DNA of 44,205 bases from Desulfurivibrionaceae bacterium (GTDB lineage: Bacteria; Desulfobacterota; Desulfobulbia; Desulfobulbales; SURF-16), in NCBI GenBank assembly GCA_041562995.1, contig JBFFNX010000002.1, positions 1 through 44,205 of the forward strand, written 5' to 3'. A program made the position numbers and the translations under genes. This document shows positions 7,082 to 25,025 of this stretch, one piece after another; position 1 is the stretch's first letter; the number at the start of each line of letters is the position of its first letter. The notes under the pieces were generated by a model. The model did not search any database and was not told the origin of the DNA. It was given only the letters and a program-made list of their open reading frames with translations.

Positions 7082-7133
7082 GGCCAGGGCAGGTATATGT
7101 CCGGTTTTGGTAATATTGCTTAGGAGAGTAGAG

Positions 7134-8414
7134 ATGAAGGTATTGGTGATTGGATCTGGAGGTCGTGAGCATGCCCTGGTCTGGAAGCTGGCGCAGAGTC
7201 CTAAGGTTACAGAAATATTTTGTGCCCCTGGTAACGGTGGAATTGCCACGATGGCCCAATGTGTACCGGTTGCTGCCGACGACATGGCCGGGCTTCTCAC
7301 CTTTGCCAAGGACAAGGCCATAGATTTGACGTTGGTTGGGCCTGAAGTGTCACTGACCCTTGGTATTGTCGATCTCTTTCAAGATGAGGGCTTGCGGATC
7401 TTTGGACCAAACAAGAAGGCGGCTGCCCTTGAAGGCAGTAAGGTGTTTATGAAAGAACTGTTGGCCAAGTACAATATCCCATCTGCTCAATTCGCCTCTT
7501 TTACTAACCGTGACCAGGCCATGGCCTATATTGACAAAATTGGCGTTCCCCTCGTTGTAAAGGCCGATGGTCTGGCCGCCGGCAAAGGAGTACTTGTCTG
7601 CCATGAACTCTCTGAGGCCAGGGAGGCCGTGGATCTGGTTATGACAGAACGGGCCTTTGGTGATGCCGGGAACGAAGTCATTGTCGAAGAGTTTTTGCCT
7701 GGAGAAGAGGCCTCCTTTATTGCCTTTACCGACGGCAAGACGATACTTCCTTTGCCGACCTCCCAAGATCATAAGGCCGTTTATGATGGCGACACCGGAC
7801 CCAATACCGGCGGCATGGGTGCCTACTCCCCGGCGCCGGTGGTCACTCCTGAGTTGCATGAGCAGGTGATGGAAAAGGTCATGATGGCCACGGTCAAGGC
7901 CCTGGCTGCAGAAGGCTGTCCTTATAAGGGTATGCTTTATGCCGGTTTGATGATACGTGACGGCGTGGCAAAGGTTCTTGAGTTTAACTGTCGTTTTGGT
8001 GATCCTGAGGCCCAACCTCTGCTCATGCGCCTTAACAACGATCTTGTTGATGTGGTTGAGGCGGTTATTGACGGTAATCTTGGGTCAATCACCCTTGATA
8101 TTGACCCAAGGCCGACAGTGTGTGTGGTAATGGCCTCAGGTGGCTACCCTGGATCCTATACCAAGGGCTATCCTATTGCCGGTCTTGACAAGGCTGGGGA
8201 GCAAAAGGATGTGGTGGTCTTCCACGCCGGCACTGCCGAGGATAAGGGGATCCTGGTAAATTCAGGCGGCCGCGTTCTCGGGGTTACGGCAATTGATGAG
8301 GATTTGGAAAATGCCATCAGCAAGGCCTATACTGTTGTGAACATGATCCATTGGCAAGATTGTTATTTCAGACGTGATATCGGCCAAAAGGCCCTGCGTC
8401 GTACTAAGTCATAG
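7134..8414 (+). CDS. purD: Phosphoribosylamine--glycine ligase
   Basis: 'MKVLVIGSGGREHALVWKLAQS' at the N-terminus, and an ATP-grasp core 'VVKADGLAAGKGV' ... 'GPNTGGMGAYSP'. Start chosen at the ATG giving MKVLVIG. Confidence 0.95.
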   Translation: MKVLVIGSGGREHALVWKLAQSPKVTEIFCAPGNGGIATMAQCVPVAADDMAGLLTFAKDKAIDLTLVGPEVSLTLGIVDLFQDEGLRIFGPNKKAAALEGSKVFMKELLAKYNIPSAQFASFTNRDQAMAYIDKIGVPLVVKADGLAAGKGVLVCHELSEAREAVDLVMTERAFGDAGNEVIVEEFLPGEEASFIAFTDGKTILPLPTSQDHKAVYDGDTGPNTGGMGAYSPAPVVTPELHEQVMEKVMMATVKALAAEGCPYKGMLYAGLMIRDGVAKVLEFNCRFGDPEAQPLLMRLNNDLVDVVEAVIDGNLGSITLDIDPRPTVCVVMASGGYPGSYTKGYPIAGLDKAGEQKDVVVFHAGTAEDKGILVNSGGRVLGVTAIDEDLENAISKAYTVVNMIHWQDCYFRRDIGQKALRRTKS

Positions 8415-19753: not shown

Positions 19754-20644
19754 ATGAGCCAATCTGTAACACAAACAAATTTGGAAAATTTAAAGCTTGT
19801 CAGCCGGGGCAAGGTTCGTGACTTGTATGAGGTTGACGACATGCTCCTGATGGTGGCCACTGATCGCATTTCCGCCTATGATGTGATCATGAACGAACCC
19901 ATTCCCAATAAGGGCCGGGTGCTTACCAAACTCTCCCTGTTTTGGTTCGATATGCTCGGCGATATCATTCCCCATCATCTGATCAGTGCAGATCCTGATG
20001 AGTATCCCGCCGCTTGTGCGCCATACAAGGATATTCTCCAAGGCCGTTCCATGCTGGTGAAAAAGGCGCAACCCTTGCCGGTGGAGTGTATTGTCCGGGG
20101 ATATATTTCCGGATCCTTCTGGAATGCGTACCAGAAAGACACCACGGTCTGCGGTTTTAAACTCCCTGCCGGTCTGCAGGAATCAGAGAAGTTCCCTCAG
20201 GTTCTTTTTACCCCTTCCACCAAGGCTGATCTGGGACTCCATGACGAAAATATCTCTGTGGCCCAGATGGAGAAACTGGTCGGCAAAGAAGAGACCGCTC
20301 AGATTGCCGACATCTGCGTGCGGCTCTATGAAAAGGCTGCTGACTATGCCCGGACTAAGGGCATTATTATTGCCGATACCAAATTTGAGTTGGGTTGGTT
20401 TGAGGGTAAACTCATGCTCATCGATGAGGTGCTGACCCCTGACAGCTCCCGCTTCTGGCCTGTGGATGATTACGTCATTGGCCGCGGTCAAGCAAGTTAC
20501 GATAAGCAGTTTCTTCGCGACTATCTCTCTGGTTTGGATTGGGATAAGACGCCTCCGGCCCCACCTCTGCCGGCCGAGATTCTTGAAAAAACAGGGGGGC
20601 GGTATCTTGAGGCCTTAGAGCGCATTACCGGTGCTGGTCTGTAA
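19754..20644 (+). CDS. purC: Phosphoribosylaminoimidazole-succinocarboxamide synthase
   Basis: '[26 protein letters not shown]' and 'IADTKFELG' are SAICAR synthase motifs. Confidence 0.95.
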
Positions 20645-20667
20645 ACTATTTTTCGTTATATCAACGA

Positions 20668-20704
20668 CAAAGGGGCGGCCTCATGGAGGCGGCCCCTTTT
20701 TTTG
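20668..20704 (+). terminator. Rho-independent terminator after purC
   Basis: GC-rich stem GGGGCGGCCTC / GAGGCGGCCCC with one mismatch, followed by T8. Confidence 0.7.
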
Positions 20705-20804
20705 TCTAGGGATCCTAACTTTAACTTTATTCAATGCGTATGGTTCTGTGATATGGTTTGAGGTACTTTTTCTTATCATCATTTAACCCGGTTAAAGGTT
20801 GGCC

Positions 20805-21482
20805 ATGGAAATTTCTATGAGAGCTGAGACAACAAGTGTGTTGATGCGCCCTGAACTTAAGGAAAATCGACCAAGAGATAAAGCGTCGCATTTTAAGATC
20901 GCCGAAACGCTCTCCGAGTTTGATGGTGCCTGCCGGTTGGTCCACGATCTCTATGTACGGGAGGGCTATATTGACCCTCAGCCCGGCGGGATGAGGGTGA
21001 CGCCGTTCAGTTTACTTTCTGCCACCAGAACTTTTATAGGGTGCGAAAAAAATAATATATTTTTAACCGTGACACTTTTTGGTGATTCCCCGCAGGGCTT
21101 GCCAATGGATAGCCTCTACAGGTCAGAGCTTGATATGCTCAGAAAAGAGGGCCGGAAAATTGCCGAGGTAGGAGCCCTTGCCGTTAAGTCCACCGCGAAA
21201 CTTACATTTCGCGATAAAGTCATGATGCTTTTTAGGATCGTCCTTCAGTATGCCTGGAGTGATATGCACTGTGATGATATTGTTATCGTCATTAATCCTA
21301 AACATCGCGGCTTTTATGAGAAGGTTTTATCTTTCAAGCAGATTGGGGGAGAAGAGGCCTATGAATATGTAAAGGGCAATCCTGCAATTGCCCTCCGGCT
21401 GGACCTGAAATGGGATAAGAGGAGATTCTTTTGGCTGGAGCGATTGTTGGGGGGTGACGAAAAAATGGCCAAGGCTATTTGA
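20805..21482 (+). CDS. FeeM-like N-acyl amino acid synthase (GNAT/LuxI-like fold acyltransferase)
   Basis: About 225 aa. By eye, 'FKIAETLSEFDGACRLVHDLYVREGY', 'GLPMDSLY...ELDMLRKEGRKIAEVGALAV' and 'IVIVINPKHRGFYEKVLSF' resemble the N-acyl amino acid synthase / exosortase-associated acyltransferase families. This has not been HMM-verified. The first ATG is at 20805; the ORF-track start at 20799 is a TTG. Confidence 0.55.
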   Translation: MEISMRAETTSVLMRPELKENRPRDKASHFKIAETLSEFDGACRLVHDLYVREGYIDPQPGGMRVTPFSLLSATRTFIGCEKNNIFLTVTLFGDSPQGLPMDSLYRSELDMLRKEGRKIAEVGALAVKSTAKLTFRDKVMMLFRIVLQYAWSDMHCDDIVIVINPKHRGFYEKVLSFKQIGGEEAYEYVKGNPAIALRLDLKWDKRRFFWLERLLGGDEKMAKAI

Positions 21483-21483
21483 C

Positions 21484-23025
21484 ATGAAGGATATGGCCCA
21501 AATGCTCCAGGAGGTGACAACCGTTCTTGGCCCTGAGGCTGTGGATATCAACAGCCAGAGACTCCAGGGGGAAATGGCAAATACCCTTGGTCTCAAAAGA
21601 GATATCGGGGCTATTTTTTATCCATCGACCACGGCAGATGTTCAAAAAATAATAAGAATCGCTGCTGAATATCACGTCGCACTCTATCCCATCAGTAGGG
21701 GGATGAATATCGGTTACGGTGATAAAATGCCGGCTGGTCAAGGGCAGGTTCTGGTCAATCTGGAAAGGATGAAGGCTATCCGGGAGTTTGATACCGAACT
21801 CGGCTCTGTCATTATTGAACCGGGCGTGACCCAGCAACAACTCTTTCAATATCTTACCGATCATAATCAGCCATTCTGGATGGACGCCACCGGCGCCGGA
21901 GTGGATGCCAGTATTATCGGCAATACCCTGGAAGGTGGATTTGGTCACACCCGCCTGGGAAATCATCGGGCTGAAATATCCGGGCTTGAGGTGGTTTTGG
22001 GTACCGGCGAGATTCTCGAAACAGGTGATTTTCCAGGCCTTGGTCCTGATTTGAGTGGGATTTTTGTCCAGTCAAATTTGGGTGTTGTCACGGCAATGAA
22101 GGTCAAACTTTTGCCGGTGCCCGAACATTATGAATCTTTTGTCGTAAAGGTTGATAATGATGGACTCCTCGAACCCCTTGTTGCCCAAATTAATAAATTG
22201 CGTGCCGAAAATGTGCTGACTTCCCTTGTCCATATTGCTAACGCTACAAGATCTCTTGTCACCACCCAAAACTTTCCTGAAGGATTTGCAAAGAATCGGG
22301 TCAGTTGTCCACAGGCCATGGCGTTAATGAACAAAGGGGCTCTCGTTAAAATAGGGTACTGGACGGCTATTGGCAGTCTGAGTGGCTCAAAACGTGTCGT
22401 TGCTGCCCACCGGAATATGTTGAAAAAAAGTTTCAAGAACATCGGCACGGTTAAATTTTTTACTGACAGCAAAATCAGCAGGGTGAAAAAAGTTCTTTCA
22501 TGGCCTCTATTCGGCAAGCTCATGCCGGTGGCCAGACTGCGAGCAAGCATGCAAACGTTAAAATACATACATGATCTCGGCAAAGGTATTCCGTCAAACA
22601 TGGCTGTGGATAATATAACCTGGAGGGTGAAAGACCAGAAGGACCTGGGCCTTGTCTGGCTGAGTCCTGCTGTGCCGTCAAGCCCCGCAAAGGTCCGGCA
22701 CATGTTGGACATTGTGGCCGGGGAATTTGCCGCCACTGATTTTGAGATGCCCGTGACCTTGACCTCGGTCACCGATGATAAAATGGTGGCTGTAATCAGT
22801 ATAATATTTGATAAAAATAAAGATGAAGATGTGGCCAAAGCACATGAGCTTTATTTTGCAGCCATGGCCAAGCTGAAACGAAATGGAATTCAACTGTACA
22901 GGTCTTCCATTCTCGCCATGAATGATGTCGATTACCCTCATCAGGGTAAAAAGGTCGTTTTCAGGCAGTTAAAAGACGTTTTGGATCCCCAGGGAATTAT
23001 CGCCCCTGGCCGCTATATTTCATGA
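21484..23025 (+). CDS. FAD-binding oxidoreductase, VAO/PCMH (4-phenol-oxidising) family
   Basis: 'ALYPISRGMNIGYGDKMPAGQGQVLVNLERMKAIREFD...IIEPGVTQQQLFQYL' aligns by eye with the PCMH/VAO FAD_binding_4 core. The C-terminal 'LYRSSILAMNDV...DPQGIIAPG' resembles VAO 'EYRTHLAFMDQI...DPNGIIAPG'. ATG 21484 sits 1 nt after the upstream stop; an alternative ATG at 21454 would overlap by 29 nt. Confidence 0.85.
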   Translation: MKDMAQMLQEVTTVLGPEAVDINSQRLQGEMANTLGLKRDIGAIFYPSTTADVQKIIRIAAEYHVALYPISRGMNIGYGDKMPAGQGQVLVNLERMKAIREFDTELGSVIIEPGVTQQQLFQYLTDHNQPFWMDATGAGVDASIIGNTLEGGFGHTRLGNHRAEISGLEVVLGTGEILETGDFPGLGPDLSGIFVQSNLGVVTAMKVKLLPVPEHYESFVVKVDNDGLLEPLVAQINKLRAENVLTSLVHIANATRSLVTTQNFPEGFAKNRVSCPQAMALMNKGALVKIGYWTAIGSLSGSKRVVAAHRNMLKKSFKNIGTVKFFTDSKISRVKKVLSWPLFGKLMPVARLRASMQTLKYIHDLGKGIPSNMAVDNITWRVKDQKDLGLVWLSPAVPSSPAKVRHMLDIVAGEFAATDFEMPVTLTSVTDDKMVAVISIIFDKNKDEDVAKAHELYFAAMAKLKRNGIQLYRSSILAMNDVDYPHQGKKVVFRQLKDVLDPQGIIAPGRYIS

Positions 23026-23254
23026 ATTTTCCAGGGCTACTCCCTCTGGCACCTCTTCTTCTCCTTTCCGAGTCTTCAAAATCATGTACATAATCTCTCA
23101 GCTGTTCGTCATGTTGCCACATGGCAAAGGGTGCTTATTGTCTTGTTGGGCTCAATAAACAAAAAAATGTTGGTCAAGCCACAAGACCCCTGGCTGCCGC
23201 AAAGGGGCCTGGTGGCTTTGTCGTCTCAACGTAGTTACCTGATAGAGGTAGTAC

Positions 23255-23857
23255 CTAGAAACTGTTGTATGTGATTATGTCATCCATTCCAAGTTGGCCG
23301 CCACGAGGCCAAGCCTCTTTGGTGCCTTTGCCGATGGCGACAAACATGGCAATGACATGGTCTTGGGGCAGGTTGATCAGTTTTCCCACCTCGTCAAAAT
23401 CAAAACCGTCCATGGGGCAGGACTCATAACCCATGCTCGTGGCCGCCAGCATCAGAGTCTGGGCAGCCATGCCACAGGAGCGCATGGCTTCATCTCGTTG
23501 GACCGTTGGTTTGTCTCGGTAATAGGCGTCAATGGCCGGCAGAATAAAGTCCTGGACTTCTTGAGGGGTATTTTGCCAGTAGCGGCCAGGATCTTTTTGC
23601 CAACTGCCCAGATCGGCGCAGAGAATCACAAAGAGCGAGGAGTCAGTTACCTGGGCTTGGTCCCAAGCGGCGGTTCTGATTTTTTGGCGTAAATCAGGGT
23701 CTTGAACCACGACAAAACGCCAATTCTGGATGTTGAAGGCGGTGGGAGAAAGCATGGCCAGGGACATGATCTTGTCAATTTCCCCTTCTGGCATGCGGTG
23801 TGATTGGTCATAATGCTTTACGGCCCGGCGTTTTTTAATAGCAGAGATAACGTCCAT
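23255..23857 (-). CDS. Nitroreductase-family flavoprotein
   Basis: 'MDVISAIKKRRAVKHYD' and 'LSPTAFNIQNWRFVVV' are typical of the family. Start chosen at 23857 because it has an AGGTGA SD. Confidence 0.88.
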   Translation of the reverse strand: MDVISAIKKRRAVKHYDQSHRMPEGEIDKIMSLAMLSPTAFNIQNWRFVVVQDPDLRQKIRTAAWDQAQVTDSSLFVILCADLGSWQKDPGRYWQNTPQEVQDFILPAIDAYYRDKPTVQRDEAMRSCGMAAQTLMLAATSMGYESCPMDGFDFDEVGKLINLPQDHVIAMFVAIGKGTKEAWPRGGQLGMDDIITYNSF

Positions 23858-24074
23858 GATGCTCACCTGAAGAGATTGATTGTTTATGGTATAAAGGAAC
23901 ATATTTTTTAAAGTGTAGGTGATGGCGGGATAATACTCAAGATAAGTGTATTATCTTGAGGTTGAAGAAGGTTTTTTACCGGGTATTTATTACCCCTGGT
24001 GGCACGGAAGGTATCCATCAGTGCTAACTCTATGCCTCAGCAGGCCAGGGTAATTAACACTTAAAGGTGGCTTT

Positions 24075-25025
24075 GTGGGACATCGAATATCTCTTGGCGC
24101 TGTTGTGGTGCCGATGGTGGCTTTCTGGCTGCTTTCCATAGCTGTCCCGGCATTTGCCTTTCTCTATGTGGAGGAGAATGCCCCCCTTCCCCATCTCCAG
24201 TTTCAAGAGGTGGTTTCTGGGAAAATGAAGGCCTTTGATGGGAGTATAAAACGACCACTTGTTCTCATTTTTTGGGGTGCGGATATTGATACTAAGAGAG
24301 AGCGGGCCATTGAGGTTCTTGGTTATATCCAGGAGGCCCGTGCCTTTTATCAAGAGAGAAATATTGAATTGGCTGCCGTTTTTGTCCAGCCGGAACAGGT
24401 ATCTTTGCTGAAAGAGGTTGTCGACCGGGTGCACCTTGATTTCCCAATCTATGTGGATAGTGAGAGTCAATCCTTTGAAAAATTAGGGGTGTATGTGATG
24501 CCTTCCATCCTCATTGTCAGTGAGGATGGTATTGTTCACAAGGGTTTGGGCTATACCCGTAATCTTGAGGATATCCTCCACGGTGAAATTAAAATCATGC
24601 TCCATGAAAAAACCAGAGAAGAGGTTAACTCTGAGTTGCATCCGGACATTGTTGAGAGGACCACGGCCCAGCGTCGGGCCCGCCTTGATTATAATTACGC
24701 CCTTAATCTTGTTCTGCGCCAGAAGCTTGATTTGGCCCTTGAAAAACTGGACATGGCCCTGGAGAAGGACCCGGAATTTCTCCCGGCCCTGGTTGAGAAA
24801 GGCTGTCTTTTGGTGAAAAAGGAAAAATTTCAGGAGGCTGCAGGGTTCCTTGAACGAAGTCTCGGCCTGGCCCCTGAATTTAAGCGGGCCTTAACCTGTA
24901 AGGACGAGCTCAAGGCTGCTGAGCGTCAGAAGGGGCAGGGGGCAAAGGCTCCCGGGAAATCAGATCCGGCTTCCTGGGGCTTTTTTGCGGATGATGGGGA
25001 GGAGGGGAGTGACTCCCCAGAATGA
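24075..25025 (+). CDS. Secreted TlpA-like thioredoxin-fold protein lacking CXXC, fused to a TPR-like C-terminal region
   Basis: A signal/anchor helix is followed by 'PLVLIFWGADIDTK', where redoxins carry FW..WCxxC, and by 'MPSILIVSEDGIV' (cis-Pro loop context). The C-terminus has 'YNYALNLVLRQKLDLALEKLDMALEKDPEF' TPR-like helices and an acidic tail. GTG start. Confidence 0.55.
   Translation: MGHRISLGAVVVPMVAFWLLSIAVPAFAFLYVEENAPLPHLQFQEVVSGKMKAFDGSIKRPLVLIFWGADIDTKRERAIEVLGYIQEARAFYQERNIELAAVFVQPEQVSLLKEVVDRVHLDFPIYVDSESQSFEKLGVYVMPSILIVSEDGIVHKGLGYTRNLEDILHGEIKIMLHEKTREEVNSELHPDIVERTTAQRRARLDYNYALNLVLRQKLDLALEKLDMALEKDPEFLPALVEKGCLLVKKEKFQEAAGFLERSLGLAPEFKRALTCKDELKAAERQKGQGAKAPGKSDPASWGFFADDGEEGSDSPE

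Follow-up and report, generated by a model that had tools for sequence, protein, structure and literature searches.

The 44,205-nucleotide stretch of DNA analyzed here (the window; contig JBFFNX010000002.1 of a Desulfurivibrionaceae bacterium) carries a two-gene cassette downstream of purC, in which a gene predicted to encode a FeeM-family N-acyl amino acid synthase (NAS; gene 1) is followed immediately by one predicted to encode a flavoenzyme of the vanillyl-alcohol oxidase/p-cresol methylhydroxylase (VAO/PCMH) family (gene 2). Our interpretation, which draws on the sequences and on analogy with known pathways and to which we attach a probability of about 0.6, is that the two genes form an operon that makes a tyrosine-derived N-acyl lipid, likely an N-acyl-4-hydroxystyrylamine (an enamide). 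A preliminary description of this DNA put the pairing forward as uncharacterized, but it is known already from FeeM and FeeG of the fee cluster and from CndG (PMC11350588, PMC11959600, PMC8762209), and the cassette is a minimal case of the known FeeM/FeeG-type modification of N-acyl-tyrosine and not a new pairing. Literature searches that sought 'N-acyl amino acid synthase' together with terms for VAO, PCMH or a flavin adenine dinucleotide (FAD) oxidase returned no paper, and the link surfaced through the names FeeG and CndG.

Gene 1 is a predicted FeeM-type synthase

Gene 1 (20805..21482, + strand; 225 aa) matches the Pfam FeeM family PF21926 with 153.8 bits against a cutoff of 27 (E = 4e-45), covering positions 2-158 of the 158 in the profile, and a sequence search of the PDB finds FeeM itself (2g0b) at E = 3e-17 and 33% identity. 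An AlphaFold2 (AF2) model with a predicted local distance difference test score (pLDDT) of 80.5 and with disorder at residues 1-20 and in the C-terminal tail also has 2g0b as its best fold match in the PDB (E = 6e-16; template modeling score (TM) on the target 0.82-0.87), with Gcn5-related N-acetyltransferases (GNATs) next at E = 1e-7 and the acyl-homoserine lactone (AHL) synthase LasI also among the fold matches. FeeM is an N-acyl-tyrosine synthase.

Two motifs, GLPMD (21096-21110, + strand) and INPKH (21291-21305, + strand), and Glu121 within RKIAEVGA (21165-21167, + strand) are invariant across gene 1 and 14 FeeM relatives, the crystallized sequence (P0121) included. Glu121 is the conserved 'AEV' glutamate, and the glutamate of the 'LAEV' strand is reportedly the catalytic base of FeeM (Van Wagoner and Clardy 2006). 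The preliminary description likened gene 1 to the FeeM or exosortase-associated acyltransferase type; the FeeM affiliation stands, with both the profile match and the conserved Glu in place, but the exosortase affiliation does not, as an NCBIfam search gave no match to TIGR03694 (PEP-CTERM/exosortase-associated acyltransferase). The sole NCBIfam match is to residues 30-200 of the 989-aa 'hypothetical protein' model PRK14852, at 117.8 bits against a cutoff of 1337. This match indicates that FeeM-like domains exist at the N terminus of large multidomain proteins, which are possibly NAS-ThiF-type fusions.

Gene 2 is a predicted 4-phenol flavoenzyme

Gene 2 (21484..23025, + strand; 513 aa) contains a FAD_binding_4 domain (PF01565, 90.3 bits), and its top PDB sequence matches are all 4-phenol oxidoreductases – nsVAO (9ffk/9fge), VAD (8s7x), eugenol oxidase (EUGO), PCMH and VAO – at E values from 1e-47 to 1e-35, with D-lactate and glycolate dehydrogenases next at 1e-18. 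An AF2 model built on 33 homologues has a pLDDT of 92.6 and a predicted TM score (pTM) of 0.90, and its first 47 Foldseek matches in the PDB are again 4-phenol oxidoreductases, aligned over their full length with TM 0.78-0.89 (0.84-0.89 once pinoresinol hydroxylase 9h40 is set aside) and 22-27% identity; the next fold group, the D-lactate dehydrogenases, follows at TM ∼0.7. Domain, sequence and fold matches thus bear out the initial placement of gene 2 among the VAO/PCMH flavoproteins, and from sequence and model we assign it to the 4-phenol type.

Active-site residues were mapped with a MAFFT alignment of VAO with 33 members of the oxidase family; the VAO sequence, checked against the PDB, differs from 1ahu at a single known variant position, and its numbering was confirmed by the mutant entries 1qlt (H422A), 5mxu (Y503F) and 1e8f (H61T). 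The block LYRSSILAMNDV (22894-22929) aligns column by column with VAO EYRTHLAFMDQI, so the correspondence first drawn between the two is correct, and the Tyr/Tyr/Arg phenolate triad is intact: Tyr78 (21715-21717, + strand) corresponds to VAO Tyr108 and is present in all 33 family members, and Tyr472 and Arg473 (together 22897-22902, + strand) correspond to VAO Tyr503 and Arg504, present in 32 and 33 of the 33 respectively.

The covalent-FAD residue, by comparison, is absent. The column of VAO His422 holds Leu390 (22651-22653, + strand; Leu in 30 family members and Phe in 3), no Tyr lies in the ∼17 residues upstream of this column as a counterpart to the covalent flavin Tyr of the PCMH Tyr384 type, and VAO His61 has no equivalent in gene 2 in the alignment. 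The FAD of gene 2 is therefore predicted to be bound non-covalently. A covalent flavin is typical of these enzymes but not obligatory, since nsVAO, which is the best PDB sequence match of gene 2, naturally binds FAD non-covalently and is active (PMC7617285). Guerriere et al. (PMC7617285) report that the two residues at flavin N5 modulate whether the enzyme behaves as an oxidase or as a dehydrogenase, with Asp170 (VAO) or Glu (4EPO) plus Leu in oxidases, and Thr/Ala plus Pro/Ile in dehydrogenases. Gene 2 has Gly137 and Ala138 (together 21892-21897, + strand) in place of VAO Asp170 and Leu171 (Gly in 32 of 33 and Ala in 29 of 33 family members), a pair that fits neither published signature; the absence of the water-activating Asp would be consistent with a non-hydrating enzyme.

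Gene 2 thus shares the two-domain fold and the phenolate triad with VAO, EUGO, 4-ethylphenol oxidase, PCMH, VAD and nsVAO, and resembles nsVAO in having no covalent flavin residue, but is distinguished from these characterized enzymes by Gly-Ala at N5, by the missing His61 equivalent and by a context that appears biosynthetic and not catabolic. The gene 2 family is 22-27% identical to the characterized catabolic enzymes (133-166 bits, whereas these score 342-545 bits among themselves), and in an unbootstrapped neighbor-joining (NJ) tree a long branch separates the whole oxidase family from VAO and VAD.

The cassette is a coupled, accessory transcription unit

Both open reading frames (ORFs) lie where they were first described. 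The likeliest start of gene 1 is ATG 20805, rather than the TTG two codons earlier (20799), and is preceded 6 nt upstream by the ribosome-binding site AAAGG (20794-20798, + strand); its stop is TGA 21482, and the resulting length of 225 aa is that called for its relatives in contigs L081, L082 and L083. Gene 2 most likely begins at ATG 21484, 1 nt past the gene 1 stop, and the homologues P0002, P0004 and P0005 are likewise 513 aa long. A putative Shine-Dalgarno sequence for gene 2, AAGG (21470..21473, + strand), lies within the 3′ end of gene 1, and A/GAGG is found at the same spacing, 10 nt upstream of the gene 2 ATG, in the window and in L081, L083 and L084. A less likely alternative start at GTG 21454, which gives a 29-nt overlap with gene 1, would leave the function as it is.

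The cassette is bounded on the upstream side by the intrinsic terminator of purC (20666..20706, + strand), which was claimed to be strong and is so on direct folding: a -27 kcal/mol hairpin followed by U7, with z = -4.5 and none of 200 shuffles folding equally well. A consensus terminator scan of 20500-24100 found no site, that of purC included, a false negative as judged by the folding. On the downstream side the minus strand holds a terminator-like hairpin and U-run belonging to a convergent nitroreductase gene (23161..23218), and the fold of 23150-23254 on this strand (-35.5 kcal/mol, z = -2.9) shows the hairpin followed by UUUUUUU. With a terminator on either flank the cassette forms its own transcription unit, and the A/T-rich intergenic region at 20707..20804 (+ strand) must hold its promoter, although a sigma-70 consensus scan of these coordinates found no site. 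The GC content of the cassette is 0.472, compared with 0.50 for the window.

PurC places the host in the Desulfobulbales, its closest named relatives being metagenome-assembled genomes (MAGs) of Desulfurivibrionaceae and Desulfobulbaceae with 85-91% identity. Comparison with related contigs confirms that the synteny of the pair is maintained, both here and, as described below, in several phyla. In L081, L082 and L083 the pair occupies the same slot after purC, with oxidases 74-79% and FeeM proteins 62-64% identical to those of the window, and the 1-nt stop-to-start junction is kept in these and in L084, where FeeM has an internal deletion removing residues 75-139 (786-1410) and the oxidase is intact. 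A further contig, L089, whose PurC is 90% identical, has an oxidase remnant corresponding to residues 324-513 alone directly after purC (7130-7702), and L090 and L091 show no trace of the cassette in this slot. The pair is thus conserved in four related Desulfobulbales contigs (with FeeM internally deleted in one), and in three others it is missing or decayed. As an accessory trait the cassette has been gained, or is being lost and decaying, within one Desulfobulbales lineage, and its two genes are translationally coupled, co-conserved and co-lost, which makes an N-acyl-tyrosine-derived lipid a sensible product.

Comparison with characterized N-acyl-tyrosine pathways

The fee (fatty acid enol ester) cluster was reportedly recovered from environmental DNA (eDNA) by Brady, Chao and Clardy in 2002. 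The N-acyl-tyrosine made by FeeM has been proposed as the substrate of oxidative decarboxylation by the flavin oxidase FeeG (PMC11959600, PMC8762209), so that fee, like the window, combines a FeeM-family synthase with a 4-phenol VAO/PCMH flavoenzyme acting on N-acyl-tyrosine (PMC11350588, PMC11959600); gene 1 shares 33% identity and the same fold with FeeM. The window differs in having two genes only, without a dedicated acyl carrier protein (ACP), acyl-activating enzyme or further tailoring genes, and in its Desulfobulbales host, fee being a soil clone.

[quoted passage not shown] CndG oxidatively decarboxylates pre-chondrochloren, as shown biochemically (Rachid et al. 2010, J Biol Chem 285:12482, as reported in PMC11959600 and PMC8762209), and it is the sole biochemically characterized member of its functional type (PMC11350588, PMC3039461). 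Compared by description, CndG is like gene 2 in being a FAD enzyme of the same VAO subgroup, and forms a styryl enamide from an N-acylated tyrosine via a quinone methide, but its substrate comes from a polyketide synthase/nonribosomal peptide synthetase (PKS/NRPS) line and not from a stand-alone NAS. HyeB of Hyella patelloides is a FeeG homologue encoded in the hyellamide cluster, where it lies beside an N-acyltransferase and the product is an enamide, a pairing like that in the window (PMC11959600); however, the hye acyltransferase is of the SGNH/GDSL family and that of the window is of the FeeM type, and the glycosyltransferases of the hye cluster, although shared with acidobacterial relatives of the oxidase, have no counterpart in the window. 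Gene 2 is likewise encoded, at a spacing of 1 nt, beside an enzyme predicted to acylate the tyrosine amino group, and its subgroup membership, residues and context support the view that it works like FeeG and CndG.

In the Tyz system, too, a NAS makes N-acyl-tyrosine and a flavoenzyme oxidizes it at the C-alpha/C-beta position (PMC10404671, PMC12479983). The Tyz oxidase, however, is a flavin mononucleotide (FMN) enzyme of the nitroreductase superfamily that acts with a ThiF cyclase, and neither a ThiF gene nor a TyzC-like nitroreductase of ∼370 aa accompanies the NAS gene in the window.

A search with FeeM residues 14-179, rebuilt from the PDB alignment, showed that the nearest relatives of crystallized FeeM are in Patescibacteria (Kaiserbacteria, Paceibacterota), with 52-70% identity. 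Their loci (L085:6268-10600 and L087/L088:5584-10594) encode an ACP, an ACP synthase (ACPS), a PlsC-type acyltransferase, ThiF, a 373-aa nitroreductase-like protein and a MacB-type exporter, and constitute a tyrazolone-like system in bacteria of the candidate phyla radiation (CPR).

The proposed reaction and its alternatives

On the basis of its family, the synthase would place a long fatty acyl chain on the amino group of L-tyrosine, and the acyl donor is probably an acyl-ACP of primary metabolism, since no dedicated ACP gene is encoded near the cassette. The conserved residues and the FeeG/CndG precedent suggest that Tyr78, Tyr472 and Arg473 would then hold the phenolate of N-acyl-tyrosine while a hydride passes from the benzylic carbon onto FAD N5 to give a p-quinone methide. 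This intermediate would be expected to collapse by decarboxylation, yielding N-acyl-4-hydroxystyrylamine as in the fee and chondrochloren pathways, because its alpha-carboxylate is free; quinone methides of this kind decarboxylate spontaneously if the carboxylate is free, and give dehydrotyrosine if it is blocked (Sugumaran review, PMC3039461).

The same pair and substrate could also give a product in which the carboxyl group is kept, either N-acyl-2,3-dehydrotyrosine, as with the thalassotalic acids, the stieleriacines or the kyonggic acids, or a hydrated beta-hydroxy or beta-keto compound, and a beta-oxidized or dehydro N-acyl-tyrosine was what the preliminary description had envisaged. VAO-type enzymes do dehydrogenate and hydroxylate 4-alkylphenols (PMC11148156), and N-acyl dehydrotyrosines are genuine bacterial products (PMC12479983), but in all producers analyzed the dehydrotyrosine is tied to a TyzC-like oxidase with ThiF and not to a VAO-type enzyme (PMC12479983, PMC10404671), and decarboxylation is the expected fate of a quinone methide whose neighboring carboxylate is free (PMC3039461). 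In 32 of the 33 family members Gly takes the place of the water-activating Asp170, which further disfavors the hydration variant. Retention of the carboxyl group thus seems unlikely, and the product first envisaged gives way to the enamide of the precedent reaction, oxidative decarboxylation.

It is also conceivable, but quite improbable in our estimation, that the synthase has a different amine as its substrate, or the oxidase a different phenol, with a product not derived from N-acyl-tyrosine; N-acyl-tyramine, 4-hydroxyphenylglycine derivatives and a phenolic acyl chain are examples. The conserved phenolate triad needs a para-substituted phenol, and tyrosine is the sole proteinogenic amino acid of this kind. 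While enzymes of the NAS superfamily take various amino acids (PMC10404671, PMC12479983) and the sequence of gene 1 does not fix which, TyzA prefers Tyr (PMC10404671), and so does FeeM.

We prefer decarboxylation of N-acyl-tyrosine to the enamide, but several points weigh against it. Decarboxylation, carboxyl-retaining desaturation and hydroxylation are inseparable by sequence, the amino-acid specificity of gene 1 is not fixed by its sequence, and gene 2 is likened to FeeG, CndG and HyeB by subgroup, residues and context and not by sequence. The Desulfobulbales are mostly anaerobes, so that an O2-dependent oxidase reaction is not assured in this host, and no gene for a cytochrome c subunit, partner cytochrome or electron-transfer flavoprotein (ETF) adjoins the cassette. 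Finally, the Patescibacteria FeeM clusters contain no FAD_binding_4 gene and are tyz-like instead, and about a third of the oxidase loci surveyed below have no NAS gene in their retrieved flanks.

Distribution of the oxidase and its NAS partners

A profile scan that covered a single genome for each species yielded 80 loci with oxidase homologues 31-48% identical, and NAS partners were sought by iterated hidden Markov model (HMM) searches in the retrieved flanks of 84 oxidase loci. A gene of the NAS superfamily is present in the flanks of 56 of the 84, within 500 nt in 45; the loci of Hydrogenedentota, Nitrospiraceae, Bdellovibrionales and Methylomonas gave no adjoining NAS in these flank searches. 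Genomes have few NAS genes, and we estimate the likelihood of chance adjacency at ∼1%. In an NJ tree the NAS adjacency is scattered across most oxidase subclades, and the taxa with the pairing include Desulfobacterota, Planctomycetota, Beta- and Gammaproteobacteria and Acidobacteriota.

The partners fall into three classes: FeeM (PF21926), TIGR03694/PF13444, and a LuxI-like family of the Acidobacteriota. FeeM-type partners occur in Desulfobacterota, Planctomycetota, Accumulibacter and Burkholderiales, and at two loci (L001:3-1028 and L062:7880-9094, both + strand) a FeeM domain fused to a cyclic nucleotide monophosphate (cNMP)-binding domain lies directly upstream of the oxidase. The fusion recalls NasP, which is activated by cyclic AMP (cAMP), and is a hint that cNMPs control the pathway in some Desulfobacterota. 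Genuine TIGR03694 partners are found at L028:196-3139 and L045:9045-11596, scoring 213 and 238 bits (cutoff 112), the hosts being Marinobacterium profundum and a Pseudohongiellaceae MAG; to our knowledge the physiological product of the TIGR03694 acyltransferases has never been settled. At one further locus, L003, a PEP-CTERM protein is encoded directly upstream of the oxidase.

The third class comprises an unannotated ORF of ∼300 aa immediately 5′ of the oxidase at ∼35 Acidobacteriota loci. The family has no Pfam match, and the best PDB match of its profile is LasI, which is weak (E = 0.019), but hhalign relates it to the TIGR03694-type family with a probability of 87.9% (E = 3e-6) and the TIGR03694-type to the FeeM family with 97.5%; a direct hhalign comparison of the FeeM family with the acidobacterial upstream ORFs was not significant. 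Among the Acidobacteriota loci (L016-L079) a recurrent order is seen of the ∼300-aa LuxI/NAS-like ORF, the oxidase, a fatty acid desaturase (PF00487) and MGT-family glycosyltransferases (for example L029:4116-10095, L065:1529-3866 and L068:9055-12693), which suggests glycosylated N-acyl-tyrosine-derived lipids made by a logic akin to that of hyellamide. PEP-CTERM proteins are encoded near the acidobacterial cluster in 29 loci. In a Solibacteraceae MAG (L023:9008-11680, + strand) the LuxI-like NAS and the oxidase are contained in one 891-aa stop-to-stop ORF, and in its sister loci the two ORFs are ∼4 nt apart; the single ORF may be a natural fusion or may reflect a lost stop codon.

These data also bear on the question of whether genes 1 and 2 are merely unrelated neighbors, gene 2 being a catabolic p-cresol/4-alkylphenol dehydrogenase. 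Many homologues are annotated as '4-cresol dehydrogenase (hydroxylating)' by the Joint Genome Institute (JGI), and about a third of the oxidase loci have no NAS nearby. We nonetheless give this explanation very little credence, in view of the conserved 1-nt coupling, the adjacency of NAS genes in distant phyla and the one possible fusion, and in view of the oxidase itself, which lacks the PCMH/VAO covalent-flavin residues and an adjoining cytochrome c subunit gene and belongs to a family on a long branch separate from the characterized catabolic enzymes (22-27% identity). The neighbors of the cassette in the window are moreover housekeeping genes, with no aromatic-degradation genes nearby.

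A broader and distinctly tentative proposal is that the oxidase clade, with its non-covalent FAD, Gly-Ala pair and intact triad, is a general partner, of ancient origin, for the NAS/LuxI-like superfamily as a whole. Enamide lipids derived from N-acyl-tyrosine would in that case be widespread among bacteria of soils and sediments, and the enzyme in anaerobic Desulfobulbales would have to act as an O2-independent dehydrogenase. That the clade is associated with NAS of three classes and also with PEP-CTERM neighborhoods is undescribed in the literature searched, and is the more interesting lead.

Genes flanking the cassette

The cassette is embedded in a housekeeping backbone, with mutL and purC upstream and the nitroreductase gene and dnaJ downstream, and no PEP-CTERM or exosortase genes are present among the window ORFs scanned. 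The convergent nitroreductase gene noted in the preliminary description is real (23255..23857, - strand; PF00881, 128.5 bits) and encodes a classical protein of ∼200 aa lying outside the cassette. A nitroreductase of this size is found at the same position in relatives with the cassette and in those without it (L090 and L091). Its candidacy as a TyzC-like desaturase of the cassette was considered and rejected: it matches the 373-aa TyzC-like protein of L085 only at E = 0.077, and it is kept where the cassette is missing. Because it is present in relatives without the cassette and has no similarity to the TyzC-like protein we regard it as a backbone gene, and a role for it as a component of the system is not borne out.

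Beyond it, at 24075-25025 (+ strand), the window encodes a protein of 316 aa that combines an N-terminal membrane segment with an AhpC/ResA thioredoxin-like domain and C-terminal tetratricopeptide (TPR) repeats; it is kept beside the nitroreductase and dnaJ genes in all relatives and has no link to the cassette.

Implications

N-acyl-tyrosine lipids and their enamide and dehydro derivatives are antibiotics, biofilm modulators and mimics of host signals, and their VAO-type biosynthetic branch rests on CndG, which has been characterized, and on FeeG and HyeB, for which the role is proposed. The window would add a two-gene version that is minimal and self-contained, comes from an uncultured bacterium of the sulfur cycle and should be easy to express; for the window itself, the result is mainly the correct annotation of an accessory lipid cassette. 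The survey places the same oxidase family beside N-acyl synthases of three classes in several phyla, often with PEP-CTERM proteins nearby, and so provides a testable hypothesis for the products of the exosortase-linked N-acyl synthases.

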